This document shows positions 77 to 28,338 of a stretch of 64,000 bases of DNA, in pieces. Below the pieces are notes generated by a model. It worked only from the letters and a program-made list of their open reading frames with translations, did no database searches and was not told the DNA's origin. Source of the stretch: a virus. Lineage: Duplodnaviria > Heunggongvirae > Uroviricota > Caudoviricetes. A program made the translations under genes and the position numbers. The stretch lies in the IMG/VR virus record IMGVR_UViG_3300018065_000012. One strand, 5' to 3'. Positions within the stretch are counted from its first letter, which is position 1. Each line of letters starts with the position of its first letter.

Positions 77-135
77 TATTTGAGCAAAAAAATTTGAAAA
101 GTGAAAAGCGGTCTTTGTTACAAGGGTTTGGGAAA

Positions 136-444
136 ATGGATGATAAAGAGATAGCTCAGGAGCTTTTGAGAACTGCTCAATTACTTATTAGCGGTATCCC
201 TTCTGCCGTTGCTAAAAAAAATCTTGCCAAGGCATATGCTTTGAAGATTGAGTCAGCAAAGAGTAAAGCGCCGATGAGACATCAGCAAAGGTTTCACGAC
301 AGATTTCAGAAATTATACGATAAGTTGTCTTCTAAGCATCCAGACGTAGACATGAATTCTGCTGGGTTTTGGGGATCACTTGAAAGGCATGCGAAGAAGT
401 GGTGGGACAGCAGGGGGATGAAAGGGCCATCTGTAGATTGGTAA
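136..444 (+). CDS. small protein, N-terminal ELLK-AK helix family (MDDKEIAQELLRTAQLLIS)
   Basis: ORF 94..444 trimmed to internal ATG preceded by gggaaa SD-like; N-terminal family motif. Confidence 0.55.
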   Translation: MDDKEIAQELLRTAQLLISGIPSAVAKKNLAKAYALKIESAKSKAPMRHQQRFHDRFQKLYDKLSSKHPDVDMNSAGFWGSLERHAKKWWDSRGMKGPSVDW

Positions 445-481
445 AAGTGAAAAGCGTCCTTTTCTTACAGGGATGGGGAAA

Positions 482-754
482 ATGAAGAAAGTGGCTTTTG
501 AGCTTTTGAAGATAGCAAAGCTTATGAACGCTGATGTGCAGGCGCCTTCAGTGCTTAAGAAGGGAACGAAGTTCACAGGCGAGGGAGGTATTGAGTTTGT
601 GGTGAAGGAGATTTGGGTAGGGATTCCTCAGCATAGTTTTACCAGTGACGGAATGACGTGGATAAGTTACAGCTACAAAATGCCAGAAGGTCGTAAGGGA
701 ACTGAGAAGAACACTTTGGAAAATTTCTTGAAGCTTGTTCGGCAGGGGAAGTAA
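482..754 (+). CDS. small protein, ELLK-AK family (MKKVAFELLKIAKLMNA); C-terminus paralogous to 5924..6448
   Basis: N-terminal motif; leader nearly identical to that of 136..444. Confidence 0.6.
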   Translation: MKKVAFELLKIAKLMNADVQAPSVLKKGTKFTGEGGIEFVVKEIWVGIPQHSFTSDGMTWISYSYKMPEGRKGTEKNTLENFLKLVRQGK

Positions 755-755
755 A

Positions 756-1214
756 ATGGAAAATACAAAAATCGCTGGTGAATTATTGAAGTTGGCTGGT
801 CAATTACTTGGGCCGGGAAAGCCGGACGGGACTGGGCCTGTTGGATTGGGTCGTAGGCGCAGGCGGCGAGAGCAGGAATGCGACGAAGACGGTTTTTACG
901 AGCCTATGAGCAATGAAGACGAATGTGAGGAGGCTGTTGCTCAGGAGATTTTGAAGGCTTCAAAGTTAGTAAACGCTACTGACGACAAAACAAAGGCTAA
1001 GATTGCGTTAAGGGCATTATCGAGGGCAACGACGCACATGGATAAGTTGGTTGATGAGTTGCATTATTCTCATCAAGAGTTTCCAGATTTAGGAACAAAG
1101 GGTTCAAGATTGAAAGCAAGACTAAAAAAGATTATGGAGGCTGCAAACAAGGTTCAGACGTTGAGTGCGATGTCTTACAGTGATTTGGAGTCATATTTGA
1201 AGGCGGTGAAGTAA
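756..1214 (+). CDS. small protein, ELLK-AK family (MENTKIAGELLKLAGQLLGPG)
   Basis: ATG at 756 after ggcaggggaag SD; family motif then Gly/Pro/Arg-rich linker. Confidence 0.65.
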   Translation: MENTKIAGELLKLAGQLLGPGKPDGTGPVGLGRRRRRREQECDEDGFYEPMSNEDECEEAVAQEILKASKLVNATDDKTKAKIALRALSRATTHMDKLVDELHYSHQEFPDLGTKGSRLKARLKKIMEAANKVQTLSAMSYSDLESYLKAVK

Positions 1215-1549
1215 TGGAAAACAAAAAAATAGCATCTGAGCTTTTGAAGTTGGCTAAGAGTTTGGTTGGGGTGCGCATAAACAAAAGCAGCATCAAAAAG
1301 AAATTGATGGCCAACGTAGTCAACAAGTTTACGGTAGTAGCTCCAGACGACAAAGAATTTGAATTTTCGACATCTGGGAGTTCAGCGGAAGGAATCAACG
1401 GTTATTTATTCCGCGATAAGACGCCTTGGGTAGAATGGGATTGTTACGACGATGGCGTAAAGAAGGCTTTGGGATTCAGAACAATAAGGATGATTTGGTC
1501 TGTGGCTAAGAACGGCGTATTGAAGCCTTTTGATATTACGTTCAAATAA
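1214..1549 (+). CDS. small protein, ELLK-AK family (MENKKIASELLKLAKSLVG)
   Basis: Family motif; 5' 57 nt ~90% identical to 1561..1617. Confidence 0.7.
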   Translation: MENKKIASELLKLAKSLVGVRINKSSIKKKLMANVVNKFTVVAPDDKEFEFSTSGSSAEGINGYLFRDKTPWVEWDCYDDGVKKALGFRTIRMIWSVAKNGVLKPFDITFK

Positions 1550-1560
1550 GGAAGAGTTCG

Positions 1561-1788
1561 ATGGAAAACGCAAAAATAGCATCTGAGCTTTTGAAGTTAG
1601 CAAAGAGTTTGGTTGGTCAGAAGGACTTGGATGTTCGCAAAGTGAAAGCTATTCGCAAGAAAGTGATAGAGGCTCGGAATGCCATATCGAACTTGAAGGG
1701 TGAGATTTCAAAGTCAGAAATAAACAAGTTGGATTCAGTGATGAAGCAGTTGGACAAGGCTGCTGAAGGTTTGTATTATTTCATATAG
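1561..1788 (+). CDS. small protein, ELLK-AK family (MENAKIASELLKLAKSLVG)
   Basis: Family motif; aggaag SD. Confidence 0.7.
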   Translation: MENAKIASELLKLAKSLVGQKDLDVRKVKAIRKKVIEARNAISNLKGEISKSEINKLDSVMKQLDKAAEGLYYFI

Positions 1789-1798
1789 GATTCTTGAA

Positions 1799-2020
1799 AT
1801 GAATGGAGTCGCTCTTGAACTTTTGAAAGTTGCTAAATTGGTAAAGGCTGGGGCGATTACTGACAAGGCAGAGCGGTTTGTAATGTCTGCTGATCACAGT
1901 TTTTCTTTAGCATTGGAAGGCATAGCAGAAGTCGCTACAAAGGCAAAGAAGCGTTCGATTGCCAATGCGATAACAAAGGCGGCGAAAGACGTACAGCGAT
2001 TGGAAGCGAAGGGGGAGTAA
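1799..2020 (+). CDS. small protein, ELLK-AK family (MNGVALELLKVAKLVKAG)
   Basis: Family motif variant. Confidence 0.6.
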   Translation: MNGVALELLKVAKLVKAGAITDKAERFVMSADHSFSLALEGIAEVATKAKKRSIANAITKAAKDVQRLEAKGE

Positions 2021-2451
2021 TGGAAAACAAAAAAGTCGCTCAAGAGCTTTTGAAGATTTCCAAGCTTTTGTCTGCCGGTTATCAGGATTGGGGTTTGCGT
2101 TGGAGCGAGTTTGACCGCAACGATCGCATAAAGACCAAGCAGAAGTTTTTCAAGGATGAAAAAGCGCGCAAGAAGTTCATTGACAAGCTGGAAAAGAAAG
2201 ATAACTTCAAGGGCGTTGAAAGTTATTCAGACCCAAAGACAGCGAAGGTTTTATCAGGAGCTTACAAAGACGATTTGGAGAAGATAATCGACAATCGTGG
2301 TTTGAAGAGCGTGATTGATACGATTGCGCAAATCTGTCATGACAAAGCGCAGCATGTAAGGGAGAATCAGCAAGACGAGCGTCGGGCGAAGTTGTGGGAA
2401 AAGGACGCAAAGCATTTGGAGCGTGCTCATCTCAAGCTTGAGAATTACTAA
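2020..2451 (+). CDS. small protein, ELLK-AK family (MENKKVAQELLKISKLLSAG)
   Basis: Family motif; ATG overlaps preceding stop (TAATG). Confidence 0.7.
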   Translation: MENKKVAQELLKISKLLSAGYQDWGLRWSEFDRNDRIKTKQKFFKDEKARKKFIDKLEKKDNFKGVESYSDPKTAKVLSGAYKDDLEKIIDNRGLKSVIDTIAQICHDKAQHVRENQQDERRAKLWEKDAKHLERAHLKLENY

Positions 2452-2461
2452 AGGATTTGAA

Positions 2462-2803
2462 ATGAAGAAAGTCGCCGTTGAACTTTTGAAGATGGCTAAG
2501 TTGTTAATCAGTGAAGAGCGTGAGGAGTTGATACAGTTTGCTAAGGACGTACAGAAGAAGTTGGAATCCAAGGCAAGGATGAGGTTTAAGCGTAAGACAG
2601 GAACATCCAGAAAGCCTTTCGTTGGTTTTGAGGTAAAGAATTGGCAGGATGAAGTGATTCCAAATGAAATTCGTGTATTGGTAGCAAAGACGCTTGGAGT
2701 TACGGGAGTGAAGAATTGGGACAATGTAAATTACGGAAATATTACGCCGCAGCGCATTGTTTTGAGAAAAGAGCAATGGGAAAAGGTTTTGAAAAAGCTA
2801 TAG
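2462..2803 (+). CDS. small protein, ELLK-AK family (MKKVAVELLKMAKLLISEE)
   Basis: Family motif at internal ATG of ORF 2423..2803. Confidence 0.65.
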   Translation: MKKVAVELLKMAKLLISEEREELIQFAKDVQKKLESKARMRFKRKTGTSRKPFVGFEVKNWQDEVIPNEIRVLVAKTLGVTGVKNWDNVNYGNITPQRIVLRKEQWEKVLKKL

Positions 2804-2816
2804 GGAGACTTTAGAA

Positions 2817-3353
2817 ATGAAAGACGTTGCGCGTGAGTTGATTATAGCCAAAATCATTCGGCGTACAAAACTAAATGAGGACGGCAGCGCAAGAGTAGAC
2901 AACAAAGGCGTTGCGAAAGAGCTTTTGAAGATAGCCAAACTTTTATCTGCTAAGCGTTACAATGTGATTGACAAAATAGGAGACTGGGAGTTAGCCATTG
3001 AAGTACGTTGGGGAGGTTTAGTTACACCTATCATATTGAAGGGTGGCAAAGAAGTAGATCAGTTAGCTCCCAATATGAGACAACCCGCAGCCAAGAGGGA
3101 GTTCAAGAAGTACGTTCAGAAGCACGGGAGAAGGGCTAAATCTTTTACAAGCAAGGAAGGCAAAAAAGGCGACAGGGTAAGGATTATCAAAAACAAAAAG
3201 CTTGAGAAAGAGATGCCCGGCATAATTGGGATGACTGGCGAGTTTGGCGGATATTCAAGCCGTGGTGCAAGGGTGAAAAACTTGACCAACAAAAGAGGAC
3301 GCGTTAGTTACGGGTTCACAGACGTTCCTTCGGATTCGATTGAGTTTATATAA
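2817..3353 (+). CDS. ELLK-AK family protein with two tandem N-terminal copies of the motif (MKDVARELIIAKII ... GVAKELLKIAKLLSAK)
   Basis: Motif duplicated within the same N-terminus. Confidence 0.65.
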   Translation: MKDVARELIIAKIIRRTKLNEDGSARVDNKGVAKELLKIAKLLSAKRYNVIDKIGDWELAIEVRWGGLVTPIILKGGKEVDQLAPNMRQPAAKREFKKYVQKHGRRAKSFTSKEGKKGDRVRIIKNKKLEKEMPGIIGMTGEFGGYSSRGARVKNLTNKRGRVSYGFTDVPSDSIEFI

Positions 3354-3364
3354 AGGATTTGGAT

Positions 3365-3601
3365 ATGGACAACAAAAAGGTTGCTCAAGAGTTGTTGAAG
3401 ATTGCAAAGGTTTTGAACGGCGCGGCAAGCGTGACGATGATTAACGCTTTGAAACGTTCGCTTGACAATTTGAAGAAGGTACAAAACATCGTAAAAAAAG
3501 ACCCAAAGCGTTATTGGGGAGCTTTGGAAGGACGTTTTGAAGAAATCGAGAAGAATACCAGAGAACTCTTGAAGTATTCTGTAGCGGGAACGAAGAAATG
3601 A
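3365..3601 (+). CDS. small protein, ELLK-AK family (MDNKKVAQELLKIAKVLNG)
   Basis: ATG 3365 with aagga SD 7 nt upstream; ORF table start 3359 is TTG. Confidence 0.65.
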   Translation: MDNKKVAQELLKIAKVLNGAASVTMINALKRSLDNLKKVQNIVKKDPKRYWGALEGRFEEIEKNTRELLKYSVAGTKK

Positions 3602-4677
3602 ATATAGTCACTGAGCTTAAAGTATTGCTTCAAAAACACAAAGCTGATAATTGGAAAAAGCTTTTGTTGGATTCCATTACTGAAGCAAAACAGAAAGCAA
3701 AGTTGGAAGGTTTGAGGGGAGCGGATAAGTTTCCTGTTGGTCTTGAAGGCAAAAATGGTTACTATGCCTATTTGGAAAAACTGGTAAAGTGGATTCCAAG
3801 GGAGAATTACGACGAGGAAGTGCTTTACCATTTGTGCGAATTTTATTGGCTGTTGAACCAGCCACCGGGAAAGAAGTTACAGAAGAGCAAAAGCTTCAAC
3901 AAGTGGATGCGTGATTTTGCAAATCAATGGGGCAGTTTTTTGAACACGGACGAATCTGCAAAAGACTTGCAAACCTTTGTTGATGATCCTGCTTTCAGGG
4001 CTGGCGATTACATGCCCAATCCGAGCGGTTGGAGAACGTTCAATCAATTTTTCGCAAGGGAAATCAAGCCGGGTTTGAGGCCGGTGGCAGGGATGTTTGA
4101 TGACAACATTGTATGTTCGTCTGCTGATTCGACATTCGTGCGGAAGTTCCCGATAGGCGAGGACAACGAAGTCGTCATAAAACTCACGCACAAATACAAA
4201 ATACTGGATTTGCTGGAAGGTAGTCCATATCAGGAGCGCTTCAAGGGTGGGATGTTCTATCATGCATTTTTGGGGCCGAATGATTATCACAGGTTTCGCG
4301 CTCCAGTACGTGGTACGGTTTTGGAGTGTCGCGCAATACAACAGAACGTTTATCTGCAAGTGAAAATCCAAGACGGCAAGTTTTCAGCTCCTGACGGGGC
4401 TGGATACGAGTTCACTCAAACGCGTGGTTTGATTGTATTCGACTCTCCAATTGGATTGGTAGCAGTATTGCCAATCGGAATGGCGCAGGTAAGCAGCGTC
4501 AATATGACGGCAGTGGTCGGGAGCTATCTTAATAAGGGTGAAGAGTTTGGTTACTTTATGTTTGGGGGTTCAGATATCATCATGTTGTTTGAAGAACAAA
4601 GCAACGTAGTGATTTCAGCGGCTCCGGGCGTCCACTACAATTGTGGAATGGCCATTGGCGAAACGGTGAGTGAATAG
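3598..4677 (+). CDS. phosphatidylserine decarboxylase-like (pyruvoyl-dependent) domain protein with a ~150-aa N-terminal extension carrying a weak family-like helix (MNIVTELKVLLQK)
   Basis: FLGPNDYHRFRAPVRGTV matches PSD GPxDYHRxH motif; FGGSDIIMLF resembles the LGST self-cleavage site. Confidence 0.5.
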   Translation: MNIVTELKVLLQKHKADNWKKLLLDSITEAKQKAKLEGLRGADKFPVGLEGKNGYYAYLEKLVKWIPRENYDEEVLYHLCEFYWLLNQPPGKKLQKSKSFNKWMRDFANQWGSFLNTDESAKDLQTFVDDPAFRAGDYMPNPSGWRTFNQFFAREIKPGLRPVAGMFDDNIVCSSADSTFVRKFPIGEDNEVVIKLTHKYKILDLLEGSPYQERFKGGMFYHAFLGPNDYHRFRAPVRGTVLECRAIQQNVYLQVKIQDGKFSAPDGAGYEFTQTRGLIVFDSPIGLVAVLPIGMAQVSSVNMTAVVGSYLNKGEEFGYFMFGGSDIIMLFEEQSNVVISAAPGVHYNCGMAIGETVSE

Positions 4678-4679
4678 CA

Positions 4680-5024
4680 ATGCGCCGAATGGGAGTTGCG
4701 GTACCATCAGAGAACAAAGGCGGCGACTGCTATCGAGCAGCGGGAACATATATTGTCGACAATGCATTTGGTAAAAATGGAGACAAATCATTGGTTCTTG
4801 TGCATGGAGAAGTAACCGGACAAGGGCCAATTGAGGGAGTCAAATACGGTCATGCTTGGGTTGAAAAAGGTGGCATGGTTATTGATAAATCAAACGACAG
4901 AGATATCAAGATGCCAAAAGCATTGTACTATGCATTGGGAAACATAAAGAAAACGGTTCGGTATACGTCGGAAGAAGTATTAGACAAAATAACAACGACA
5001 GAACATTGGGGACCATGGGACTGA
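4680..5024 (+). CDS. hypothetical protein (no family motif)
   Basis: 114-aa ORF tightly packed between neighbours. Confidence 0.5.
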   Translation: MRRMGVAVPSENKGGDCYRAAGTYIVDNAFGKNGDKSLVLVHGEVTGQGPIEGVKYGHAWVEKGGMVIDKSNDRDIKMPKALYYALGNIKKTVRYTSEEVLDKITTTEHWGPWD

Positions 5025-5116
5025 ACATGGCTACGAAAGAAATATTTAACAAGACAAGCAAGAAAAAGCAGCGAGTGCCTTCGCGATTACTTAAAAAACT
5101 TGAGGGGAAGAGAGCT

Positions 5117-5461
5117 ATGGAAAACAAAAAAGTAGCGGCTGAATTATTAAAGGTAGCGAGTCTTTTGTCGGCTGTGGACGTTGAGAAGATTCGTAAAGAC
5201 GCAATGAAGAATTATCAAAACGCTTTACAAAATGCGGTGAGGGCGATAAACAAATACGACCTTCATCGTACAGGGCTTGAGCTTGAATTAGCAAAGCGGT
5301 ATTTCAGAAAGGGCGGTATGGTTTTTGATATTCCAGCGCAAGAGACGTTGCGTCTGGTAGAGAAGGCAATGGCGTCTTTGAAAAAAGCAAGAGGCTTCAA
5401 AAGCAAGTTAGACGCTGAAATAAGCAATACGCGAGATTCTACACAACGAGCAATGCTGTAA
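5117..5461 (+). CDS. small protein, ELLK-AK family (MENKKVAAELLKVASLLSA)
   Basis: Internal ATG of ORF 5006..5461 preceded by ggggaagagagct; family motif. Confidence 0.6.
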   Translation: MENKKVAAELLKVASLLSAVDVEKIRKDAMKNYQNALQNAVRAINKYDLHRTGLELELAKRYFRKGGMVFDIPAQETLRLVEKAMASLKKARGFKSKLDAEISNTRDSTQRAML

Positions 5462-5572
5462 ATTCCTTTAAGGAGATTATGAGGTGGGACGTCAAACTGA
5501 AGCAGGAACGCTGGTTCGTTATGCGCGACAGATTATGGCCTTGGATGAGGAAATGACAGAGCACGAAAGAAG
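5458..5572 (+). repeat. dispersed direct repeat, copy 1 (partner 6859..6972; second segment 5880..5953 pairs with 6974..7047)
   Basis: ~90% identity including stop codon, SD and first 30 codons. Confidence 0.7.
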
Positions 5573-5927
5573 AGTGTTTGCCAAACAACTGTTAGTAGTG
5601 GCAAAACATCTTCAATGGAAGGCTTTACATAAAGCCGGAATAGATTTGAGCGGCGTAGACAAGAAAGCAATGAAGGCAATGGATGACGAATTGGACGTAG
5701 CGTTCAAAAGGGCTGAAGCCCGGAAAGAATTGGTAAATCAGATTCACGACGGGTTAAGTTTATTAGGCGACCTTGCGGAGAATCGTGGAGAAAAGAAATT
5801 AGCCTCAACGGTAAAACATAGTTGGAATCAACTTGAAAAGTTGGGAAAAGGGATACGTAGTGAGTTTGATAGGATTAAGCGGGAACAGTTGAGCGAAGAA
5901 ATCAAAGGCAAAAGGACAAAACAATGA
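5484..5927 (+). CDS. hypothetical protein; variant motif FAKQLLVVAKHL at residue ~32; full-length paralog of remnant 6884..7020
   Basis: GTG start with aaggag SD 7 nt upstream; ends ...EEIKGKRTKQ. Confidence 0.6.
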   Translation: MGRQTEAGTLVRYARQIMALDEEMTEHERRVFAKQLLVVAKHLQWKALHKAGIDLSGVDKKAMKAMDDELDVAFKRAEARKELVNQIHDGLSLLGDLAENRGEKKLASTVKHSWNQLEKLGKGIRSEFDRIKREQLSEEIKGKRTKQ

Positions 5928-6448
5928 GAAACAAAAAGTTAGCGGTTGAATTGGTAAAGGTAGCTAAGTTGTTGCTCGCAGCGGAACTTTCTGACGTAGC
6001 TTACGCTTTGGGAAAAGAATACGCTTATCGCTCAAAGCCTTCCAACAAAGAATATGCCGCGTTTGAAGCAACTCATACAAAGAAGCAAAGCAAGGCGTTG
6101 GATGATGCTGTTGGGCGTTTGGAACGGAAGGGAATCAAGGTCAAGAGTTTGAGTATTGAAGCGAAGAAAGTAAGGGATATTGAAAACCCCGTAGTGATAA
6201 TTTATTTGCCTGATTTGAAAAAAGAAATACCTTTGGAACTGCCAAACAAATTGGAGAAGGGGACGAAGTTTAGAGCAAGGGGTGGAACGAATATTGAAGT
6301 GAAGGGTGTTTGGATTAGCATTTTTCATGCGCGTCCAGAAAAATCATCCCCAAGAATTAAGTACAATTATAAAACGCCAGATGGAAAGTCGGGGACGGAA
6401 GAAAACACGTTGGTGAATTTCATTCGGTTGATCAAGCAAGGAGTTTGA
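5924..6448 (+). CDS. small protein, ELLK-AK family (MRNKKLAVELVKVAKLLLAA); C-terminal GTKF..GG..NTL.NF domain shared with 482..754
   Basis: Family motif; paralog of 7018..7437 at N-terminus. Confidence 0.7.
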   Translation: MRNKKLAVELVKVAKLLLAAELSDVAYALGKEYAYRSKPSNKEYAAFEATHTKKQSKALDDAVGRLERKGIKVKSLSIEAKKVRDIENPVVIIYLPDLKKEIPLELPNKLEKGTKFRARGGTNIEVKGVWISIFHARPEKSSPRIKYNYKTPDGKSGTEENTLVNFIRLIKQGV

Positions 6449-6449
6449 A

Positions 6450-6872
6450 ATGGAAAAGGTCGCTGCTGAACTAATCAAAATAGCAAAAAGCTTGCATAGA
6501 GCAAGAGCAATCTCAAGGTTTGCAAAAATCGATCAGTTTGGTAACGTTAAGATTGTTTGGATTTACCTTTTGCAGCATCAGGATGCTGCTTCGTGGGTTT
6601 GCAGTGACTTGCAAAAATTGGGCAGTATTATTGCAAATGAGAAAAACTCAGTCAAGAAAAAAGTTGAGGACGCTGTAGGAAGGGGAAGGATAGGGAGTAG
6701 TTCCGGTTCTTTGCAGTTGTTGCTTGGTAAGAATGCGCCGCGTTTTGAAGCGTGGATGGATTTTGATTTACAAGACGTTGCCGAAGACAAAGATGATTTG
6801 AAATTCATTGCAGCCGAAGCAATGGATGCAGTAGGAGAGATGAAGTTCAAGAAAGTAAGTAAATTCCTTTAA
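6450..6872 (+). CDS. small protein, ELLK-AK family (MEKVAAELIKIAKSL)
   Basis: Family motif. Confidence 0.65.
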   Translation: MEKVAAELIKIAKSLHRARAISRFAKIDQFGNVKIVWIYLLQHQDAASWVCSDLQKLGSIIANEKNSVKKKVEDAVGRGRIGSSSGSLQLLLGKNAPRFEAWMDFDLQDVAEDKDDLKFIAAEAMDAVGEMKFKKVSKFL

Positions 6873-6883
6873 GGAGAATATGA

Positions 6884-7020
6884 ATGGCACATCAAATTGA
6901 AGCAGGAACGCTGGTTCGTTATGCTCGGCAGATTATGGCATTGGATGAGGAAATGACCGAGCATGAAAGAAGGCGGGAACAGTTGAGTGATGAAATCAAA
7001 GGCAAGAGGACAAAACAATG
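6884..7020 (+). CDS. truncated paralog (45 aa) of 5484..5927 produced by ~306-nt in-frame internal deletion (MAHQIEAGTLVRYARQIMALDEEMTEHERR|REQLSDEIKGKRTKQ)
   Basis: DNA 6859..6972 and 6974..7047 repeat 5458..5572 and 5880..5953; reading frame preserved. Confidence 0.5.
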
Positions 7021-7437
7021 AGAAACAAAAAGTTAGCGGTTGAATTGATCAAGCTTGCAAGAGAACTTGTCGCAGAGGAAGTCGTTGATGATATGATGGG
7101 CAAGGTGGCTGACTTCTTGCATGAAAATCCAAAACCCTCAGATGACGATTTCCACGAATGGGCAGAAAAGGCAGGCGTGGATAAGCATGAAGCTGAAGCA
7201 GCGGCTTACAGGTTGGCAACCTTATTTGTTGAGTTTTGGAAAGACGGTCTTGCAAACAAGGAAGGCTTCAAAGAAGAAGACGCCGACCCTGAAGAATTGA
7301 AAATGGGCATTGAAATTGAGTACGAACATACGCCCAACCCAAAAGTATCAAAGCGTATTGCTTTGGACCATCTTGCAGAAATTTCTGATTATTATACGCG
7401 CCTTAAGAAAATGGAAGAGGAAGCAGGTGTAGAATGA
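7018..7437 (+). CDS. small protein, ELLK-AK family (MRNKKLAVELIKLARELVAEE)
   Basis: Family motif; 5' DNA near-identical to 5924 start. Confidence 0.7.
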   Translation: MRNKKLAVELIKLARELVAEEVVDDMMGKVADFLHENPKPSDDDFHEWAEKAGVDKHEAEAAAYRLATLFVEFWKDGLANKEGFKEEDADPEELKMGIEIEYEHTPNPKVSKRIALDHLAEISDYYTRLKKMEEEAGVE

Positions 7438-7997
7438 AAAAACTCGTGAGAGAACTTTTGAAGATTGCCGAGGTTATCCGTTTTACAAAGTGGAACAAGG
7501 ACGGGAGTATCGAACGAAAAGAAATTTGGGACGAACAAGCGGCAGCAAAAGAAATAGCAAAGGTCTCAAAATTGATTTCTGGCGCGTCGCTTGGACCCGG
7601 TTTCAAAAACACCTATCAAGGCTATGAATTTGTAAGAACCATACGCGCCAATAGAATGGCCAAGGGTAAGATATATGGAATGTCTTACAAGGGCGGCAAC
7701 CAAGGTCAAGACATAATTCGTTTGCTTGGCTATTCCGATGTGACTCCGAAATACGGAGATGGCGGAGTCGTCTTCAATACTTTGAAAGACGTCAAAAAGA
7801 AATATGGCGTGAAGAATATGAGAGAGCTTGAGAAAATCGACGATAAGTTGAACTTGCCATACGGTCACGGAATTTACATGTGGGTTGAAAGTTTGCCAAG
7901 CGGTTCCAAAGGTCCGTGGTATTATCCTTTCAATGGCCGTTGGTCCCGTGGAAGTGGCGCAGAAAAAATTACCTTTTGGGAAGTGAAAAAAGCATAA
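7434..7997 (+). CDS. small protein, ELLK-AK family (MKKLVRELLKIAEVIRF)
   Basis: Family motif; ATGA overlap with upstream gene. Confidence 0.65.
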   Translation: MKKLVRELLKIAEVIRFTKWNKDGSIERKEIWDEQAAAKEIAKVSKLISGASLGPGFKNTYQGYEFVRTIRANRMAKGKIYGMSYKGGNQGQDIIRLLGYSDVTPKYGDGGVVFNTLKDVKKKYGVKNMRELEKIDDKLNLPYGHGIYMWVESLPSGSKGPWYYPFNGRWSRGSGAEKITFWEVKKA

Positions 7998-8019
7998 ACA
8001 TTTAATGGAGCGTTAAATC

Positions 8020-8319
8020 ATGAACGACAAACAACTTGCGCAACGACTGTTAAAATTGGCTGGTTCGCTTTTGGGTCCGGGGATTCCCGATGGAACCGGG
8101 CCGATGGGTGGAACGCCCGAATGTCCAATGAGTAACGCCGTCGAGGAGCCTGTTGAAGCTGATCCCGTTGAGCAGATTCTTGAAAACCAAGAAGAAATCA
8201 TGGAAGAGCTGGATGAAATTGAAGATGTCTTGGACGTTCACCCACCAGAACATCATATGGCGGCTGAGCTGGTAAAGATTGCAAAGGAACTTATCAAAGA
8301 GGGAAAGGACGATGCCTGA
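8020..8319 (+). CDS. ELLK-AK family protein with motif at both ends (N-terminal MNDKQLAQRLLKLAGSLLGPG; C-terminal MAAELVKIAKELIKEGKDDA)
   Basis: Motif at both termini; GPG.PDGTGP linker as in 756..1214. Confidence 0.65.
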   Translation: MNDKQLAQRLLKLAGSLLGPGIPDGTGPMGGTPECPMSNAVEEPVEADPVEQILENQEEIMEELDEIEDVLDVHPPEHHMAAELVKIAKELIKEGKDDA

Positions 8320-8671
8320 ATTTCTCAATCCGTTTCAAGTGAAAGACCTTGGTCGCCCAATGAATTTGCGCGAATTACAACGGGCGCTTCGGCAATCTAT
8401 TGCGGCTGAAGAAGAAGCGGTTCACTTGTATGAAGCTTATGCGGATGCTTCTGAATTGCAATATGTTAAAAAGGTTTTTCAAGACATTGCTGACGAAGAA
8501 AAAGTTCATGTGGGAGAATTTCAAGAATTGTTGAATCGTTTTGATTCAGGGGAACGTGAATTTCTTGAAGAGGGCGCGGACGAAGTTCAAGAGATGTTAT
8601 CTGAAGACGTCATTGCTTCAAGGGTTGCTAAAGCATTCATTGCCGGGCGTGCCGAAGATTTAGAGATTTAG
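8312..8671 (+). CDS. small acidic protein with two E-x-x-H motifs (EEEAVHLYEAY ... DEEKVHVGEF), ferritin/rubrerythrin-like four-helix candidate
   Basis: Paired ExxH motifs ~35 aa apart; ATG overlaps upstream stop. Confidence 0.4.
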   Translation: MPEFLNPFQVKDLGRPMNLRELQRALRQSIAAEEEAVHLYEAYADASELQYVKKVFQDIADEEKVHVGEFQELLNRFDSGEREFLEEGADEVQEMLSEDVIASRVAKAFIAGRAEDLEI

Positions 8672-8717
8672 TTATGGAAGTAATTGAATCCAGAGGAGAA
8701 AAGGTTTGGAGCAAGAA

Positions 8718-9095
8718 ATGAAAATAGCTTCTGAATTGCTAAAGATCGCAAAGCTATTGACGGCTAAATACAAAGTCGAAAAATGGTACTTCATGCGTAT
8801 GCCGCGAGGGAGGATGCGGCAGAAGCAAGTACGTTGGACGTTGTCGGTAGACCTCGATTGGTCTGACGAAGCGCACGGAAAACATCCTTCACAAGATTAT
8901 AAAGAAAAAGAGATGCTTGAAGAAACATACAGGTCAGATAAGTCAACAATAAGAACGTTTGCAAAAATTGGCAGGAACATCATAACGATTCCCGGTGATT
9001 TTGAATTGCGTATGAAATTTGAGATCAAGGTTCCAATGGATAAAACAAACGAAGCAACAAGAAAGCTTGAAGCATTAGGATACAAACGACTATGA
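8718..9095 (+). CDS. small protein, ELLK-AK family (MKIASELLKIAKLLTAK)
   Basis: ATG 8718 with ggag SD; family motif. Confidence 0.65.
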   Translation: MKIASELLKIAKLLTAKYKVEKWYFMRMPRGRMRQKQVRWTLSVDLDWSDEAHGKHPSQDYKEKEMLEETYRSDKSTIRTFAKIGRNIITIPGDFELRMKFEIKVPMDKTNEATRKLEALGYKRL

Positions 9096-10114
9096 ACGTC
9101 TTGAATGAGTTGAAAACAATCAACGCGTTACTTGCCCGTCGGGTAACGGGGGCAAGCGAACGTGAAAAGAATCAAAAGCTGGATAAGATTTATCGTAGCT
9201 TGCCCAACGCAGGATTCTCCGAAAAGATAACTAACAAGGATATTGTTGAATTCACATTGCGAGACGAAAGGGTTGAAATATTACCAGCGACGTACAAACT
9301 CAAAAAGTATCCTGTTGTTTTCTTTTGGGATAGAGACAGACTTCCAAGACAAGATACGCCATTTGATCTCAAGGTTGGTTTCACAGATAAAGAAGGCAAG
9401 GCAAACGGTACTTTTGTTGTCAAGCTTACTTACCGCAACGGAAAGGTTGAACTTTGTCAAGCTTGGAAAGGTGGAGTTGGGCGTTTGCTCAAAGCAATCC
9501 GTGACGAGTATTTTTTCTTTGACGCACGCGCTGGAGAATCGCATTATATAAAACAGAAAAAACTTCAGAATCTTGTAGAAGGATTTTTGAACGTTGTCGC
9601 GAGAAATTTCAACGCATGGTATGGCAGGCAAATTGATAAATACGAAGCGCTGGAAAAGGCAATCGACGGATTACCAAAAACGGAAGTTCAAGAGTTTTTC
9701 AAGAAGAAAAGACAAATTCGAAAGGATGGCTTTTACGTTTATAGATTGTCGGAGAAGGAACTCATCAATGATTTCATGACAGATTTCAATAAGGTTGTTT
9801 CCGGAATCCGTCACGACAAAAGTAAGAATCCATTGAAGTATCAAGCGATGAATTTGGTTCCTTCTGAATTTCACAACATATTGGATAGATTGAGCGACAG
9901 GCAATTGAAAGAATTGATCCCTTCTTTGGTCAAGCACCGGCCAATGAAGATTATTTTGGATAGCAAATCGACGCCACAAGGCCGTCAGACGGGTAGCGCT
10001 TTTTATGTGAACGTTAACCCAAAAGATATGATGGGCGAAGGGAAAGCTTCTGTAAGGCATAAGGGAAACGTGTTTGCTTACCGCCGATGGGACGAATATT
10101 CAAAGGCAATGTAA
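9092..10114 (+). CDS. hypothetical 340-aa protein with weak family-like N-terminal helix (MNVLNELKTINALLARR)
   Basis: Long ORF, ATGA overlap upstream. Confidence 0.6.
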   Translation: MNVLNELKTINALLARRVTGASEREKNQKLDKIYRSLPNAGFSEKITNKDIVEFTLRDERVEILPATYKLKKYPVVFFWDRDRLPRQDTPFDLKVGFTDKEGKANGTFVVKLTYRNGKVELCQAWKGGVGRLLKAIRDEYFFFDARAGESHYIKQKKLQNLVEGFLNVVARNFNAWYGRQIDKYEALEKAIDGLPKTEVQEFFKKKRQIRKDGFYVYRLSEKELINDFMTDFNKVVSGIRHDKSKNPLKYQAMNLVPSEFHNILDRLSDRQLKELIPSLVKHRPMKIILDSKSTPQGRQTGSAFYVNVNPKDMMGEGKASVRHKGNVFAYRRWDEYSKAM

Positions 10115-10539
10115 TGGATATTGACCGTATAGCAGAAAGAATAGTTGTTGCTCAACGCTTCCAAGAGGTTGAAACCGCCTTGAACGGTGTATTGAACAAT
10201 TTGGAGCGTATCCGTTTGTTAGAGAGGGAAACGATCAAATTGCCAACTGCTTCAACGCAGTTTGAAGTTTTGATCGTTCTATTAAAAAAGTTGAAACAGA
10301 TTTCCGGTATGTATGCAGCAAGAAATAAAAACAAACCAGAGTTGAAAGAGTTGGTAAGACAAGCCGGTTGGACTTATGGGGCTTCAAAGAAGGCAGAGAA
10401 GTTGGTCAATGAATTTTTGGCAAAGCGTGATAACTATTATCAACAGGTCAAGAAGTTACGCGAAGGGTTGAACCAACAGGATGAAAGCTTGACCCGCGAA
10501 CTATATGATTTGTTCAGAAGAGTGGAGGCAGGGAAATAA
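10114..10539 (+). CDS. hypothetical coiled-coil protein
   Basis: ATG in TAATG overlap with upstream stop. Confidence 0.5.
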   Translation: MDIDRIAERIVVAQRFQEVETALNGVLNNLERIRLLERETIKLPTASTQFEVLIVLLKKLKQISGMYAARNKNKPELKELVRQAGWTYGASKKAEKLVNEFLAKRDNYYQQVKKLREGLNQQDESLTRELYDLFRRVEAGK

Positions 10540-10650
10540 TGGCGTGGATAGCTTTGACGTTTGTTGTCTTATTTGTTCTTACTGCGACGTCTTTGAACAG
10601 AAAGATAAAGAGAGCAATTGACGATCTTGAAGATTTTTGAGGGGAAAGCA

Positions 10651-11418
10651 ATGGAGCGGATTGCGAAAGAGCTTTTGAAGATTGCGAAACAAATACAGTC
10701 CGGCGCAACAGGTTTTTCCAAATTCGGAAAAGGCACTGACGCCAAAAGAGTGTTTCGCGATTTGCAAGAAGCGGCAAGAAGGGAATATGGCGAGGACCGT
10801 TACAGCGGGACGATCGGCGCTAAGGATAGTTTCAAACTTGTAGCTGAGCCAATGCCCTTGAAGGGCGCACAAGAAGTAGCAAGAAAGATGGGCGACAAGG
10901 CTGATAAATGGGGACCAGCGTTTGGCGTTCCTGTTGTGGGGGAAAGCAAAGGCAGATTGAAGGACGTTAAGAAAGCCGTCAAATCAAAAAGCAGTAGGGA
11001 GGCAGTTGAAGCATTGAATCAAATGCTAAACGAAAGATACAAAGGGTTTGTTTGGGAATGGGAAACCAAACCTAAAGTGGAATTGTTGAAAGGTTCTGCG
11101 ATTACCTTCAAGACGCAGAAAGGGGCAAAGCCAGCGGTTGTTTACAAAACCTTAACGTACAAAGAATATCCTACGTTGAAAGAAGCAGTTGACGCAACAG
11201 AAGCTCATATCAAGACGGCTATTCAAGAAAATTGGCGTTTGCAAAAAGAATATCCAATCACCGCCGAAGTATCAAACGCTACAAGAGTTGCGGCCAAAGT
11301 TACATTTGATTTCAGAAGCAAAGAGGGAAACAAGTATCAAGTAAGTGGTAAAATCAAGGTATCGAAACCAAGCAAGAAAATAATTGGGTATTTTTTCTTT
11401 GGCGAAGCGCCAACGTAA
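10651..11418 (+). CDS. ELLK-AK family protein, 255 aa (MERIAKELLKIAKQIQSG)
   Basis: Internal ATG 10651 preceded by gaggggaaagca. Confidence 0.65.
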   Translation: MERIAKELLKIAKQIQSGATGFSKFGKGTDAKRVFRDLQEAARREYGEDRYSGTIGAKDSFKLVAEPMPLKGAQEVARKMGDKADKWGPAFGVPVVGESKGRLKDVKKAVKSKSSREAVEALNQMLNERYKGFVWEWETKPKVELLKGSAITFKTQKGAKPAVVYKTLTYKEYPTLKEAVDATEAHIKTAIQENWRLQKEYPITAEVSNATRVAAKVTFDFRSKEGNKYQVSGKIKVSKPSKKIIGYFFFGEAPT

Positions 11419-11426
11419 AGGCCGGG

Positions 11427-11597
11427 ATGATGACAAAATTACAGATGAGATCAATTCACGACAAGCTTGACGCAATGGGGAAGCTGTTTAAGAAAACAAG
11501 CGAAACGATTGACGCAAATATACAACGGCTTGAGAAGAACGAAACGAACGACTTGAGCTGCGCGAGCGAACGACTTGAATCTACAACGAAGAAGTAA
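11427..11597 (+). CDS. possible small coiled-coil protein (56 aa)
   Basis: Unlisted ORF filling an otherwise empty gap; no strong SD. Confidence 0.3.
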   Translation: MMTKLQMRSIHDKLDAMGKLFKKTSETIDANIQRLEKNETNDLSCASERLESTTKK

Positions 11598-11609
11598 GGA
11601 GGTTTACTT

Positions 11610-11858
11610 ATGGCGAAGTTTGATTATAGTGCTATGTATGATCCCAAGAATGCATTTCCAAAACGTCTTCCAAATGTATCTTCGGAAGCAGCGGCAGATA
11701 AAGGAGTATTAGTGATTGGGATTCCAAATGATAGTACGGTTGCCGTTGACGATGCGAAGGAATATTGGAATGGTGGAAATTTGATGGCAGTTTATGGAAT
11801 CTCTGTCGACATTGTTTACTATGCGCGTACAGGAAATTTGAATCAATTTTTACCGTAA
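11610..11858 (+). CDS. hypothetical protein
   Basis: Strong SD taaggagg 7 nt upstream. Confidence 0.65.
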   Translation: MAKFDYSAMYDPKNAFPKRLPNVSSEAAADKGVLVIGIPNDSTVAVDDAKEYWNGGNLMAVYGISVDIVYYARTGNLNQFLP

Positions 11859-11859
11859 A

Positions 11860-11910
11860 GGTCATTTAAGGCTCCTGCCCGTCGATTCGCCTTCTCCCTT
11901 CTCCGATGAG
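11860..11910 (+). other. perfect 11-bp GC-rich inverted repeat (ggctcctgccc / gggcaggagcc) with 29-nt loop; possible terminator or RNA/protein-binding structure
   Basis: Seen directly; no U-tract follows. Confidence 0.35.
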
Positions 11911-11942
11911 GGCAGGAGCCTCTCCCCTTTCTGGAGTTTGCT

Positions 11943-12356
11943 GTGAAGACTGTAGCAAAAGAATTATTGAAAGTAGCTAAATTGCTTACAAGCGGAAAAG
12001 TAAGAGTCAGAACGCAGACTCCTGACGTTGAATTGGATGATGTTGAATTGATTCAGCGGGTAAAAAGCTACGGTAAAGACGCACAATCATCTTATGGGTT
12101 GTTCGTAAGAGCACGCGGTTTGAGGCCGAAGATCAACATGAAGAAGTTTAGGGAGATTTGGGATTCAGTATCGCCCAACAAGCATGAAAAAGTGGAAACA
12201 GTTGATTTCAAACCTACGCACAAATCAAAGGATGTTGAAGGTTTGACTATTATGGTGACGCAAGTTGAACCAAATATAGTGCGTTTCATATCAAGTTATG
12301 GCGGTACTGGATCAAGCCCAGCTGGGCTTTTCAAAAGTCAGTACAAAAAAATCTGA
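11943..12356 (+). CDS. small protein, ELLK-AK family, GTG start (VKTVAKELLKVAKLLTSG)
   Basis: Family motif; ggag 8 nt upstream of GTG. Confidence 0.6.
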   Translation: MKTVAKELLKVAKLLTSGKVRVRTQTPDVELDDVELIQRVKSYGKDAQSSYGLFVRARGLRPKINMKKFREIWDSVSPNKHEKVETVDFKPTHKSKDVEGLTIMVTQVEPNIVRFISSYGGTGSSPAGLFKSQYKKI

Positions 12357-12373
12357 ACCCAAGGGAACAGCGA

Positions 12374-12571
12374 ATGGCCGTTGAAGCAACAAGGCAAAAA
12401 ATCTTATTGGAGATCAAAAGGCTACGTCCGGATTTTCCAGATACTACAATCAGACAATGGGTTGATGACTTTTTGAAAGCAGTTAAAAATGCAGATTTGG
12501 AATTGGTAGTAGGCCGGAAGACGAAAACAAAGATTGTACTTCCGAAAAATATTATTAACAGAAGGAGATGA
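12374..12571 (+). CDS. hypothetical small protein
   Basis: aaggga SD 7 nt upstream. Confidence 0.5.
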   Translation: MAVEATRQKILLEIKRLRPDFPDTTIRQWVDDFLKAVKNADLELVVGRKTKTKIVLPKNIINRRR

Positions 12572-12573
12572 AG

Positions 12574-12732
12574 ATGAGAAAAATGAAGCACCCAAGGTGC
12601 AGCCGTGGATTACACGACTATCAGAAAATAAACCAGTACATGAAAGAATGCAAGAACTGCGAGAAGCGCGTAAGAATTGGATTTGATATTCGCAAAAACA
12701 AGATCAGCAATATAGGAAGAAAAAGACGATGA
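12574..12732 (+). CDS. possible 52-aa basic Cys-containing peptide
   Basis: Unlisted ORF with aggag SD 6 nt upstream. Confidence 0.3.
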   Translation: MRKMKHPRCSRGLHDYQKINQYMKECKNCEKRVRIGFDIRKNKISNIGRKRR

Positions 12733-12816
12733 GAAAGAGCGGAAAAGGCAGACGAAAAATAGGTAAGAAGAAACGTCTTGCGAGAAGAAAAGCCCGCAAC
12801 AAGAAATGAGGTAACT

Positions 12817-13323
12817 GTGCCCGAACAGAAACCAAAATCAAAAGAAAACAATACGACGGTACTGACGAAAAGCGGCGTAGTTAAGAAGGTTTTGCTTGCT
12901 GTGATTACCGGCGCTGTCGGAACTGCCTTTGCTGGGATTGTTTGGGTTTGTGGAACGGTTTTGACGCTTCAAAAGGATATGACCACAACGAAAGCGAGTG
13001 TGGAATCAACGGCAAAAATGATTGAGGAACGTTTCAAAGAGCGCCCTGATGATATGGCAATTTGGGAACAGTTGCACAAACATGCAGGAGAGATTAAGGA
13101 ATTGCAAATTAAGGATGCGTTTAAGGACGGACGTTGGGAAGGAATACATAAGAGAAAAATAGAGCACCCTATTCCAGAACCAGATGACGAGGAAGCTATA
13201 GAAAAACCAGAACCAAAAGAAAACGGAGACGATACGAGATCATTTCGAGAAAAACACATGCGTCCTTGGATTCAACAACAGCAAGCAAACGAACCACCGC
13301 TTATGTTGAATAGGAAAAAATGA
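12817..13323 (+). CDS. single-pass membrane protein (TM helix VKKVLLAVITGAVGTAFAGIVWVCGTVL)
   Basis: GTG start after gaggt; hydrophobic segment. Confidence 0.5.
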   Translation: MPEQKPKSKENNTTVLTKSGVVKKVLLAVITGAVGTAFAGIVWVCGTVLTLQKDMTTTKASVESTAKMIEERFKERPDDMAIWEQLHKHAGEIKELQIKDAFKDGRWEGIHKRKIEHPIPEPDDEEAIEKPEPKENGDDTRSFREKHMRPWIQQQQANEPPLMLNRKK

Positions 13324-13344
13324 AAATTATAAAGGATGATCAAA

Positions 13345-13611
13345 ATGAAAAACAAAGGAGTATCGTCGAAACAGGCGTATCACTTGCTCTGTCTCATCAG
13401 GCGAAATTCTTTGAACTTGGGGGGTAAGGAAAAGTTTGCGGTCATAAAGCATTTGGAAAAGATGGCAAAACCATATATAGAAAAACACGTAAGCCATGAA
13501 GAAGTTCAACTTGGAGAATTGTCAAAGCAAATTAGTTACTTGGCGGGGATTGTTCAAAACGTGAGAACGAATCTGGAACAAAAAAATGGAAAAGTCAAAA
13601 CGCATGAATGA
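13345..13611 (+). CDS. hypothetical protein
   Basis: aaagga SD 8 nt upstream of second ATG. Confidence 0.5.
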   Translation: MKNKGVSSKQAYHLLCLIRRNSLNLGGKEKFAVIKHLEKMAKPYIEKHVSHEEVQLGELSKQISYLAGIVQNVRTNLEQKNGKVKTHE

Positions 13612-13828
13612 AAAACAAATTGCTACAAGAATTGCAAAAAGGCTTTTAGCTGATCCCGTAGTTGATAATTACGCAATTGAACTTCAAAAGGCTTCAGACA
13701 AGTTGGAGAATATTTCGAAGAAGGTGCGGTCAAAATCAATAGCTGATTTCAATAAACAGAAAGCAAAACGGTCACTCAAACAATTGAAGCTTGTCCTTGG
13801 ATTATTAACTTCAAATTTCAAGGTGTAA
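13604..13828 (+). CDS. hypothetical small protein with degenerate helix motif (IATRIAKRLLADP)
   Basis: ATGAATGA overlap. Confidence 0.45.
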   Translation: MNEKQIATRIAKRLLADPVVDNYAIELQKASDKLENISKKVRSKSIADFNKQKAKRSLKQLKLVLGLLTSNFKV

Positions 13829-13832
13829 AACG

Positions 13833-14390
13833 ATGCCATTCAAAAGCGTTGAGGAAGCAATAAAGAAACATCCCGGTTTGAAGAAGTATAGTCAGAAGGC
13901 GCAACGGGGTTGGCTCAAGTCGATCAACAGTTGTTTTGCTGGCGGGGGAGACGATGGTAAATGTTTTCCAATTGCTTGGAGCGTAGCAAACAAAGCGGAT
14001 AGCAAGAAAGCCATGGACGAAAAAGATTTTGATGAATGGGTCGTTGACGTGGAGTTCAGAGCAGGGCGGTTTGTAGTTTTCAAAGCAGACACGTTTGCAA
14101 GAGCAGACGAGGTGTACGAAGTTTATCCAAAAGGAAGCAAGAAGAAAATAGCAAGTATAATTTTCAATAACGGAAGAATCAAAATCATGGCAGATGCTTG
14201 GACGTTTACGAGGGAAAACCCTTTGGTCAAAGTTGATAGGGAGATACGAGATCCAAAGCCGATAGATGCGGCTAAGTATTTAGTCAAGCTTTACAAGCTT
14301 TGGGAAATGTACTATACGAAGAGAAAAATTTCAACAGAGTTAATCAAGATAGCAAAGATTCTTATTGGAGAGAACGGCAGTGGAGATTAA
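13833..14390 (+). CDS. hypothetical 185-aa protein carrying the family motif at its C-terminus (ISTELIKIAKILIGENGSGD)
   Basis: C-terminal occurrence of motif. Confidence 0.6.
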   Translation: MPFKSVEEAIKKHPGLKKYSQKAQRGWLKSINSCFAGGGDDGKCFPIAWSVANKADSKKAMDEKDFDEWVVDVEFRAGRFVVFKADTFARADEVYEVYPKGSKKKIASIIFNNGRIKIMADAWTFTRENPLVKVDREIRDPKPIDAAKYLVKLYKLWEMYYTKRKISTELIKIAKILIGENGSGD

Positions 14391-27507: not shown

Positions 27508-27530
27508 CCATATAATAATTTTATATTTGC
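27508..27530 (+). promoter_or_regulatory. AT-rich element CCATATAATAATTTTATATTT (late-motif family member)
   Basis: Shares TTTTATATTT core with 39071, 49135, 55766, 59586, 62758. Confidence 0.4.
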
Positions 27531-27568
27531 GTATTGTTGAGACAAGTATCTCTCTCGACAGAGGAAAT

Positions 27569-28327: not shown

Positions 28328-28338
28328 CGGAGGAAATT

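Follow-up and report, generated by a model that had tools for sequence, protein, structure and literature searches.

A huge-phage gene of the phosphatidylserine decarboxylase superfamily with the two-domain build of soluble amino acid decarboxylases

Introduction

Does a phage gene that looks like a phosphatidylserine decarboxylase (PSD) act on membrane lipids or on something else? The question is raised by an open reading frame (ORF) in IMG/VR virus record IMGVR_UViG_3300018065_000012, a Caudoviricetes phage, of which we analyzed a stretch of 64,000 nucleotides (here, the window). A first-pass annotation, made from the letters of the sequence, had read this ORF as a PSD-like pyruvoyl domain lying in an array of phage genes and had proposed that it remodels host membrane lipids or serves as a co-opted self-cleaving module. 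We compared its predicted product with protein profiles, with solved enzymes, and with its phage and bacterial relatives. The reading that we favor, with moderate confidence, is that the product is a soluble pyruvoyl decarboxylase that activates itself and is of the type represented by PsiD and Ao-ADC1, that the gene belongs to a large bacterial branch of this type, and that huge phages carry it as a stand-alone accessory gene for a free amino acid or a similar small-molecule substrate. These two structural neighbors act on tryptophan (PsiD, PMC11929908) and arginine (Ao-ADC1, PMC12904898).

The gene and its predicted product

The gene is complete and is packed closely between its neighbors. 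Its ATG (position 3598) shares bases, as ATGA, with the stop of the array gene upstream, and 2 nucleotides separate its TAG from the start of the following gene. The window as a whole is densely coding on the + strand, with a GC skew that is positive across the whole length, and a promoter and terminator scan of its first 12 kb (1 to 12 kb) found nothing above shuffled expectation. The gene and its two domains are as follows.

3598..4677, + strand: decarboxylase ORF, complete; 359 amino acids and a TAG stop; predicted PSD-superfamily pyruvoyl decarboxylase proenzyme
3598..4032, + strand: N-terminal domain, residues 1 to 145, hydrophilic and all-helical; homologous to the N-domain of PsiD and Ao-ADC1; probably a divergent Pfam PSDC domain (PF12588)
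4039..4659, + strand: PS_Dcarbxylase (PF02666) catalytic beta-rich domain, residues 148 to 354; Pfam E = 5.6e-40

The PF02666 match reached 137.6 bits (cut-off, 22) and covered profile positions 1 to 197 of 198, and the assignment of the ORF to the PSD superfamily is far beyond chance. A hidden Markov model (HMM) search against PS_Dcarbxylase, together with inspection of the Ser/His/Asp context, had been set in advance as the test of the PSD-like pyruvoyl domain; the match was significant, the catalytic residues were intact, and this part of the first-pass annotation was borne out. The motifs on which it had relied are also present, FLGPNDYHRFRAPVRGTV at residues 224 to 241 and MFGGSDIIMLF at residues 321 to 331 of the 359-residue protein, with FGGS at 322 to 325. 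A further conserved motif, FYWLLxQPxG, occupies residues 82 to 91, inside the N-terminal domain. With an alignment of 46 full-length close relatives (alignment A1) as input, AlphaFold2 gave a model with an all-helical N-domain followed by a beta-rich core (mean predicted local distance difference test score, 90.1; predicted template modeling score, 0.86).

Recent transfer of the gene was considered and rejected: its GC content (0.448) and third-codon-position GC content (0.494) lie inside the range of the phage's other genes (0.431 ± 0.024 and 0.452 ± 0.053, respectively).

Processing and catalytic residues

We followed individual residues through A1 and through a wider set of 121 family sequences. 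Equivalences to the solved enzymes were taken from HMMER alignments, and the roles of residues were taken from published work on those enzymes (PMC7952604, PMC11929908, PMC12904898).

4126..4128, + strand: Asp177, processing-triad acid; matched by alignment to position 90 of Escherichia coli PSD and to Glu242 of PsiD
4282..4290, + strand: Asp229-Tyr230-His231 of the LGPNDYHR signature; by alignment equivalent to Asp142 and His144 of E. coli PSD, His296 of PsiD, and His332 of Ao-ADC1
4564..4572, + strand: Gly323-Gly324-Ser325, predicted serinolysis site; invariant in 121 sequences
4570..4674, + strand: predicted alpha chain, 35 residues (SDIIMLFEEQSNVVISAAPGVHYNCGMAIGETVSE), placed from the cleavage site

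Seven residues (D177, H222, D229, H231, G323, G324, and S325) were invariant across the 46 relatives in A1, and four of them (H231, G323, G324, and S325) were invariant in all 121 sequences of the wider set. Residue 177 was Asp in 119 of the 121 and Glu in the other 2; we take position 90 of the E. coli enzyme to be Asp90. The G324-S325 pair aligned to G253-S254 of E. coli PSD, S325 aligned with the cleavage Ser of both PsiD and Ao-ADC1, and the deposited PDB beta chains of PsiD and Ao-ADC1 terminate exactly at the aligned GG. The earlier placement of the GGS at the position of the PSD LGST autoprocessing site therefore agrees both with these alignments and with the invariance of the three residues. 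The predicted beta chain comprises residues 1 to 324. Judged by these residues, the ORF encodes a pyruvoyl proenzyme of the PSD superfamily with an intact catalytic Asp/His/Ser context, and it is predicted to cleave itself.

In the mechanism that we propose, the product would be a soluble, cytoplasmic, pyruvoyl-dependent enzyme made up of a helical domain at the N terminus and the PF02666 core. By analogy with the family, the proenzyme would cleave itself between Gly324 and Ser325 by means of His231 and Asp177/Asp229, and the 35-residue alpha chain would start with the pyruvoyl cofactor formed from Ser325. The substrate would then be bound through its free alpha-amino group, as a Schiff base with the pyruvoyl carbonyl, CO2 would be lost, and the amine would be released. 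The substrate would most likely be a free amino acid or another small molecule of the amino acid type, and not membrane phosphatidylserine.

A two-domain build shared with PsiD and Ao-ADC1

The N-terminal 150 residues had been described as unrelated and as beginning with a weak helix like that of the array family, and neither description survived the comparison with homologues. A homology search returned 2,776 relatives. Nearly all of the best 120 of these span 98 to 99% of the query (99% of the protein in the case of bacterial homologues that also cover the N-domain, at 50 to 59% identity), and they include proteins from Candidatus Scalindua, Desulfobacterales, and Draconibacterium that are named phosphatidylserine decarboxylase and are ∼55% identical to the phage protein. 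At least 557 related stretches from many phyla were found in a species-level genome collection. The A1 family profile aligned through the N-domain to Ao-ADC1 in one stretch (profile positions 7 to 341, chain residues 84 to 462; E = 1.6e-22) and likewise to PsiD in one stretch (profile positions 45 to 340; E = 3.6e-26), and it aligned to E. coli PSD over the core only (143 to 318). Pfam PSDC (PF12588) matched residues 82 to 126 of the phage protein weakly (21.0 bits, with a cut-off of 23.4; E = 4e-4). Among the close relatives, 15 of 46 matched PF12588 at an E value of ≤0.01 (best, 1.1e-6), and precomputed matches to it exist on several relatives at 64 to 76% identity.

The opening helix of the phage protein (MNIVTELKVLLQKHKADNWKKLLLDSI) recurs in bacterial homologues (for example, PEEIVGALKHILRDHKGWEELLEKSL; A1 consensus, IV.EL..LL..H.GW..LL) and is, as far as these sequences indicate, an ancestral feature of the enzyme family. 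The model made from 20 copies of the array helix reported no match for the decarboxylase ORF at E values up to 1000 with filters off (--max), and the array helix is absent from the other phage loci that bear the decarboxylase. Membership of this helix in the array was rejected because the array-helix HMM is silent on the ORF and the helix is already present in bacterial homologues. The resemblance noticed earlier is accounted for by this ancestral helix of the enzyme family.

The best match in the PDB by phmmer was Ao-ADC1, the pyruvoyl-dependent arginine decarboxylase of Aspergillus oryzae (PDB 9JER, 9JF5, and 9JFN; E = 2.5e-14), which has an N-terminal helix region and a PF02666 domain and lacks PSD activity (PMC12904898). 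Beyond this order of helical region and core, the phage enzyme has in common with Ao-ADC1 the GGS cleavage site, the aligned His (His332 in Ao-ADC1, His231 in the phage enzyme), a W..P.GR motif in the N-domain, and a loop motif, P-D-x-A-G (longer form, P-D-x-A-G-x-[ED]-x-[TS]-Q). The two differ in that identity is only 19 to 23%, the window protein is about 120 residues shorter, and the signature is DSYH in the fungal Ao-ADC1 but DYHR in the window protein.

The L-tryptophan decarboxylase PsiD of Psilocybe cubensis (PDB 8X4Q and 8ZIA) also matches the phage enzyme in architecture, in a GGS(S) self-cleavage site, in an equivalent of His296, and in a Phe where E. coli PSD has Tyr137. However, identity is 18 to 21%, and the acid of the triad is Glu242 in PsiD, whereas the phage enzyme has the PSD-like Asp177. 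In the alignment, the indole contacts of PsiD (L112, P114, V292, Y338, L339, and T374; PMC11929908) correspond to D72, E74, P227, G267, A268, and A296. Since these contacts are not conserved, the pocket does not appear to be PsiD-like, and tryptophan is an unlikely substrate; we regard the phage gene as an orthologue of neither PsiD nor Ao-ADC1. The two-domain build itself, a helical N-domain packed on a PSD core, is common to PsiD, Ao-ADC1, and the phage enzyme. Given this build, formation of an amine from a small molecule is probable, and lipid remodeling is not.

Departures from canonical phosphatidylserine decarboxylases

The alternative that survives best is that the gene encodes a genuine decarboxylase of phosphatidylserine or of a related aminolipid head group, with which the phage would raise phosphatidylethanolamine or remodel host membranes. 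We consider this unlikely. It draws on the PF02666 match, on a classical PSD core signature with equivalents of Asp90, Asp142, His144, and Ser254, on the label that databases give to the bacterial homologues, on N-terminal membrane anchors in some relatives, and on a listing of ocean viral auxiliary metabolic genes in which psd appears at negligible abundance (PMC11360552). Against it stands, first, the failure of the phage protein to attain the cut-off of any NCBIfam PSD or archaetidylserine decarboxylase equivalog. All six models were missed, with scores and cut-offs in bits of 107.1/371, 81.2/307, 69.5/111.75, 51.4/285, 24.4/230, and 22.7/183, a shortfall of about 1.6- to 9-fold.

Comparison with E. 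coli Psd (PDB 6L06 and 7CNW-7CNZ) was more specific. The two proteins share the PF02666 core, the Asp/Asp-His-Ser processing residues, an LSPxDYHR-type signature, and the Gly-Ser pair at which E. coli Psd undergoes serinolysis to pyruvoyl (PMC7952604). In the E. coli enzyme, three N-terminal amphipathic helices provide monotopic membrane association and acyl-chain binding, and the lipid phosphate is held by Tyr137 (Tyr or Arg across PSDs) and Ser166; a Y137F/S166A double mutant is strongly impaired (PMC7952604). The amphipathic helices and the acyl-chain surface are absent from the phage enzyme, which has in their place the PsiD-like hydrophilic helical domain of 145 residues (mean Kyte-Doolittle hydropathy, -0.78). 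Its highest 19-residue hydropathy falls in a conserved strand of the beta-core, no transmembrane segment was found outside the core, and only the core of the protein superposes on 6L06. Neither phosphate ligand is retained in the alignment.

4267..4269, + strand: Phe224, in place of E. coli PSD Tyr137 by alignment; also Phe in PsiD (F289) and in Ao-ADC1
4354..4356, + strand: Leu253, in place of E. coli PSD Ser166, the second phosphate ligand, by alignment

Of the 121 family sequences, 117 have Phe at position 224 and 103 have Leu at position 253, and both residues are invariant in the 46 close relatives. Two smaller differences concern the cleavage motif, which is FGGSD in the phage enzyme and LGST in the E. 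coli enzyme, and the predicted alpha chain of 35 residues in the phage enzyme. The E. coli protein has 322 residues, 69 of them in the alpha chain.

Three further points speak against a lipid substrate. The structurally closest enzymes are soluble, and one of them, Ao-ADC1, is without PSD activity (PMC12904898); an operon of gut Bacteroidales with a GadC-like antiporter (see below) indicates a soluble substrate there; and neither pssA nor any other lipid gene turned up among those window ORFs that were scanned. With the membrane-association helices and the phosphate-binding residues of a true PSD missing, remodeling of host membrane lipids, as first proposed, is the less likely function.

Bacterial relatives and clues to the substrate

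By sequence comparison, the family to which the phage gene belongs is that of bacterial proteins named phosphatidylserine decarboxylase that carry a PSDC-like N-domain. Homology to these proteins extends over the full length (41 to 59% identity), and their catalytic and pocket-lining residues are identical to those of the phage enzyme. Examples come from Candidatus Scalindua, Desulfobacteraceae, Melioribacteraceae, Draconibacterium, and gut Porphyromonadaceae and Muribaculaceae. The nearest bacterial relatives differ from the phage clade (355 to 388 amino acids) in an N-terminal extension of 30 to 60 residues and an insert of about 15 residues (PPEAYTPRDKHSKDKPN-like), both of which are missing in the phage clade.

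To describe the bacterial neighborhoods, ORFs from 82 loci were clustered, and the sole recurring neighborhood was a transporter operon of gut Bacteroidales. It was found in eight loci from metagenome-assembled genomes (L046, L054, L056, L057, L069, L076, L078, and L082) of Porphyromonadaceae, Muribaculaceae, and Bacteroides sp. CAG:927. In all eight, a GadC-like APC antiporter comes after the homologue (two copies in L057); an MFS transporter is present in seven and a DcaP-type porin in five. The APC transporter scored 626 bits against the GadC glutamine/gamma-aminobutyric acid (GABA) antiporter model TIGR03813 (cut-off, 650), and its next-best models were Glu/GABA and Tyr/tyramine antiporters. 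The decarboxylase homologue of these loci is 44% identical to the phage protein and has the same active-site residues. A decarboxylase beside a precursor/product antiporter is the classical layout of amino acid decarboxylation systems. The gut operon may itself be an unrecognized pyruvoyl amino acid decarboxylase/antiporter system.

The GadC-like antiporter and the dicarboxylate-type porin of this operon hint at conversion of glutamate to GABA. Positions of the PsiD pocket loops are the same in the gut, other bacterial, and phage clades (F224, L225, D229, D266, G269, Y270, F272, Q274, R276, M295, Q297, V298, S299, S300, and K313). This identity suggests that the members of the three groups may have a common or similar substrate. 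The context suggests an acidic amino acid, with glutamate, giving GABA, as our best guess, and arginine is the candidate by structural analogy. More broadly, and as a tentative proposal, the whole branch could be an unrecognized class of pyruvoyl decarboxylases for a free amino acid other than Trp or Arg (glutamate to GABA, for example), by which huge phages would reprogram the amine, pH, or osmolyte pools of their hosts.

The closest bacterial relatives stand alone or lie beside a second paralogue. In Draconibacterium (L004, 8001-16700), two paralogues of the family occur within about 5 kb, in the company of a radical SAM/SPASM-TPR protein, a 31-amino-acid ORF, Peptidase_C69, LysM, and two DUF2589 proteins. 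Candidatus Scalindua (L005, 8001-17290) likewise has two within about 5 kb, with collagen-repeat, DNase_II, and RebB proteins.

Distribution and context in phages

The identical protein occurs on contigs of up to 338 kb. Close relatives were found on IMG/VR contigs of 145, 173, 398, and 416 kb and also on contigs of 313 and 398 kb, where the surroundings are phage-like (dense small unannotated ORFs, HNH endonucleases, sigma factors, PARP, ClpP, and ribosomal protein S21). In a neighbor-joining tree, which as a distance tree without support values is indicative only, the short versions of 355 to 388 amino acids formed a single clade nested among sequences of Scalindua, Desulfobacteraceae, Melioribacteraceae, and Draconibacterium. 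This topology and an identity floor of ∼60% with all catalytic residues kept fit a single acquisition followed by long retention, as far as such a tree can indicate. We propose that an ancestor of the huge-phage lineage (contigs of 145 to 416 kb) would have acquired the gene once, from bacteria, and that it would have been kept as a stand-alone accessory metabolic gene, to the benefit, we infer, of the phage. In the phage studied here it lies packed into the operon of the N-terminal-helix array and is no member of the array family.

The first-pass remark that a PSD-like enzyme is unusual in a phage is in keeping with the reference sets. No PHROG family matches the decarboxylase, the PSDs in BFVD are from giant eukaryotic viruses only, and INPHARED gave only six matches (26 to 28% identity over the catalytic part), which are named phosphatidylserine decarboxylase or psd where annotated; two of the records are Salmonella genome sequences.

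No neighbor was conserved across the phages examined, and the context of the gene varied from case to case (tRNA array, HNH and sigma-factor regions, and PARP/ClpP regions). Of 32 proteins encoded at 1-17.6 kb of the window, none was present in the other decarboxylase-bearing phage loci. In two huge phages the homologue is a lone opposite-strand gene within an array of 30 to 38 tRNA genes. The array around the homologue has 30 tRNA genes on a 398-kb contig (L007, 1-17000) and 36 tRNA genes plus two overlapping transfer-messenger RNA predictions on a 173-kb contig (L008, 1-17400); a 416-kb contig (L009) has the same ORF list as the latter.

The 114-amino-acid ORF directly downstream of the decarboxylase (4680-5024) was considered as a functional partner and rejected, having no Pfam, NCBIfam, or PHROG match. 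Its relatives (36 to 50% identity) are on 13 other IMG/VR contigs of 4 to 365 kb, and none of the 13 was found to carry the decarboxylase. A Cys (GDCY) and His residues (HGEV and YGHAW), read as conserved from the sequence of this ORF, hint at a small hydrolase.

The placement of the gene, embedded in the array and translationally packed with it, and the lack of a conserved metabolic partner in any phage examined would suit a reading in which decarboxylation is irrelevant and the gene is a decaying passenger or a co-opted self-cleaving module, such as a maturation switch for a protein delivered with array products. This is very improbable: residues that align with the PsiD pocket loops vary little or not at all between phage and bacterial members, so that the whole active-site shell is conserved beyond the cleavage site; phage homologues keep a complete, uninterrupted ORF down to 60% identity; and the gene does not carry the array helix, nor do the other phages that have it possess an array.

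Other features of the window

The array in which the decarboxylase lies consists of at least 21 + strand ORFs that open with a common helix of ∼18 residues (E values of 1e-6 to 1e-10 with the HMM of 20 copies). The consensus is M-[ED]-N-K-K-[VI]-A-x-E-L-L-K-[IL]-A-K-x-L, and the bodies behind it are unrelated (mean column identity, 17%).

94-14942, plus 53647-53940, + strand: array helix genes, by HMM
51428-51868, 13833-14390 (C terminus), and 50814-51011 (C terminus): weaker copies of the array helix, by HMM

None of the array members scanned had a Pfam or PHROG match. The A-x-E of the helix bears a possible resemblance to motifs for prohead protease and capsid targeting in T4 and phiKZ-like phages. 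Seven occurrences of this leader within about 6 kb were also seen in two further IMG/VR contigs, L108 and L109 (66 and 78 kb; 2354-8400). In the window, one ORF (8020-8319) carries the array helix twice, at the N terminus and, as a weaker copy, at the C terminus (HHMAAELVKIAKELI), and the overlapping ORF at 8279-8671 has a rubrerythrin/EncFtn-like ferritin fold (PF02915, E = 1.7e-10; PF22277, E = 2e-4, below cut-off). The two ORFs could be a single frameshifted gene, and the presence of an encapsulin-cargo-like ferritin adjoining a possible targeting helix is suggestive.

A cluster at 27527-31658 resembles a DNA modification locus. It contains two ParB-like ORFs (PHROG ParB-like/DNA methyltransferase N-terminal; no Pfam match), a TET-associated glycosyltransferase (TAGT; PF20691, E = 1.4e-12), a PIG-L family deacetylase (E = 9e-18), and a radical SAM protein, and suggests glycosyl-type hypermodification of the phage DNA. 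Some phages use pyridoxal phosphate-dependent decarboxylases for thymidine hypermodification, and the decarboxylase studied here might be conceived as a pyruvoyl counterpart that acts on an amino acid tethered by its side chain to a macromolecule or nucleotide, such as a serine or glutamate adduct in DNA. Tethered amino acids are within reach of the superfamily, in that PSD chemistry acts on a serine attached by its side-chain oxygen, and the cluster lies in the same window (27.5-31.7 kb). We nevertheless give this idea very little weight, since the cluster is about 23 kb away and is unlinked to the gene in the other phages examined, the bacterial homologues are widespread (at least 557 stretches in the species-level genome collection) without such clusters, and the gut operon points to a free amino acid.

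Elsewhere in the window, a nucleotidyltransferase of the CCA-adding/poly(A) polymerase type with an HD domain (PF01743, PF12627, and PF01966) and an RlaP RNA-repair nucleotidyltransferase (PF10127) are encoded at 14939-16441 and 19761-20648, respectively. No tRNA genes were found in the window.

Discussion

Several observations weigh against our preferred reading of the gene as a soluble, PsiD/Ao-ADC1-type decarboxylase. The core signature LGPNDYHR and both Asp residues are nearer to canonical PSDs than to PsiD (LNVTAYHR) or Ao-ADC1 (LSADSYH), and the sequence E values to all three solved enzymes are similar. Pocket residues were placed through alignments at 18 to 25% identity and not through coordinates. 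About 11 of the 121 bacterial relatives have an N-terminal signal or membrane anchor, and given these anchors a membrane-proximal substrate is possible in some bacterial members. The linkage to transporters is confined to one distant clade (44% identity), and the closest bacterial relatives and all phage copies are without informative neighbors. Finally, a literature search found nothing on any bacterial or phage enzyme of this branch.

If our reading is correct, the annotation "phosphatidylserine decarboxylase" on the N-domain proteins of a very wide range of bacteria is probably wrong as to substrate. The branch would then be a third, prokaryotic one beside PsiD and Ao-ADC1, the recently discovered soluble PSD-like amino acid decarboxylases, and a lineage of huge phages would bear an accessory metabolic gene for amine formation. 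Small and predicted to be cofactor-free and self-activating, the enzyme would be cheap and easy to test. For the phage, it would be one more acquired metabolic gene and would not introduce a new principle; the interest of the finding lies mainly in the probable misannotation of the branch.

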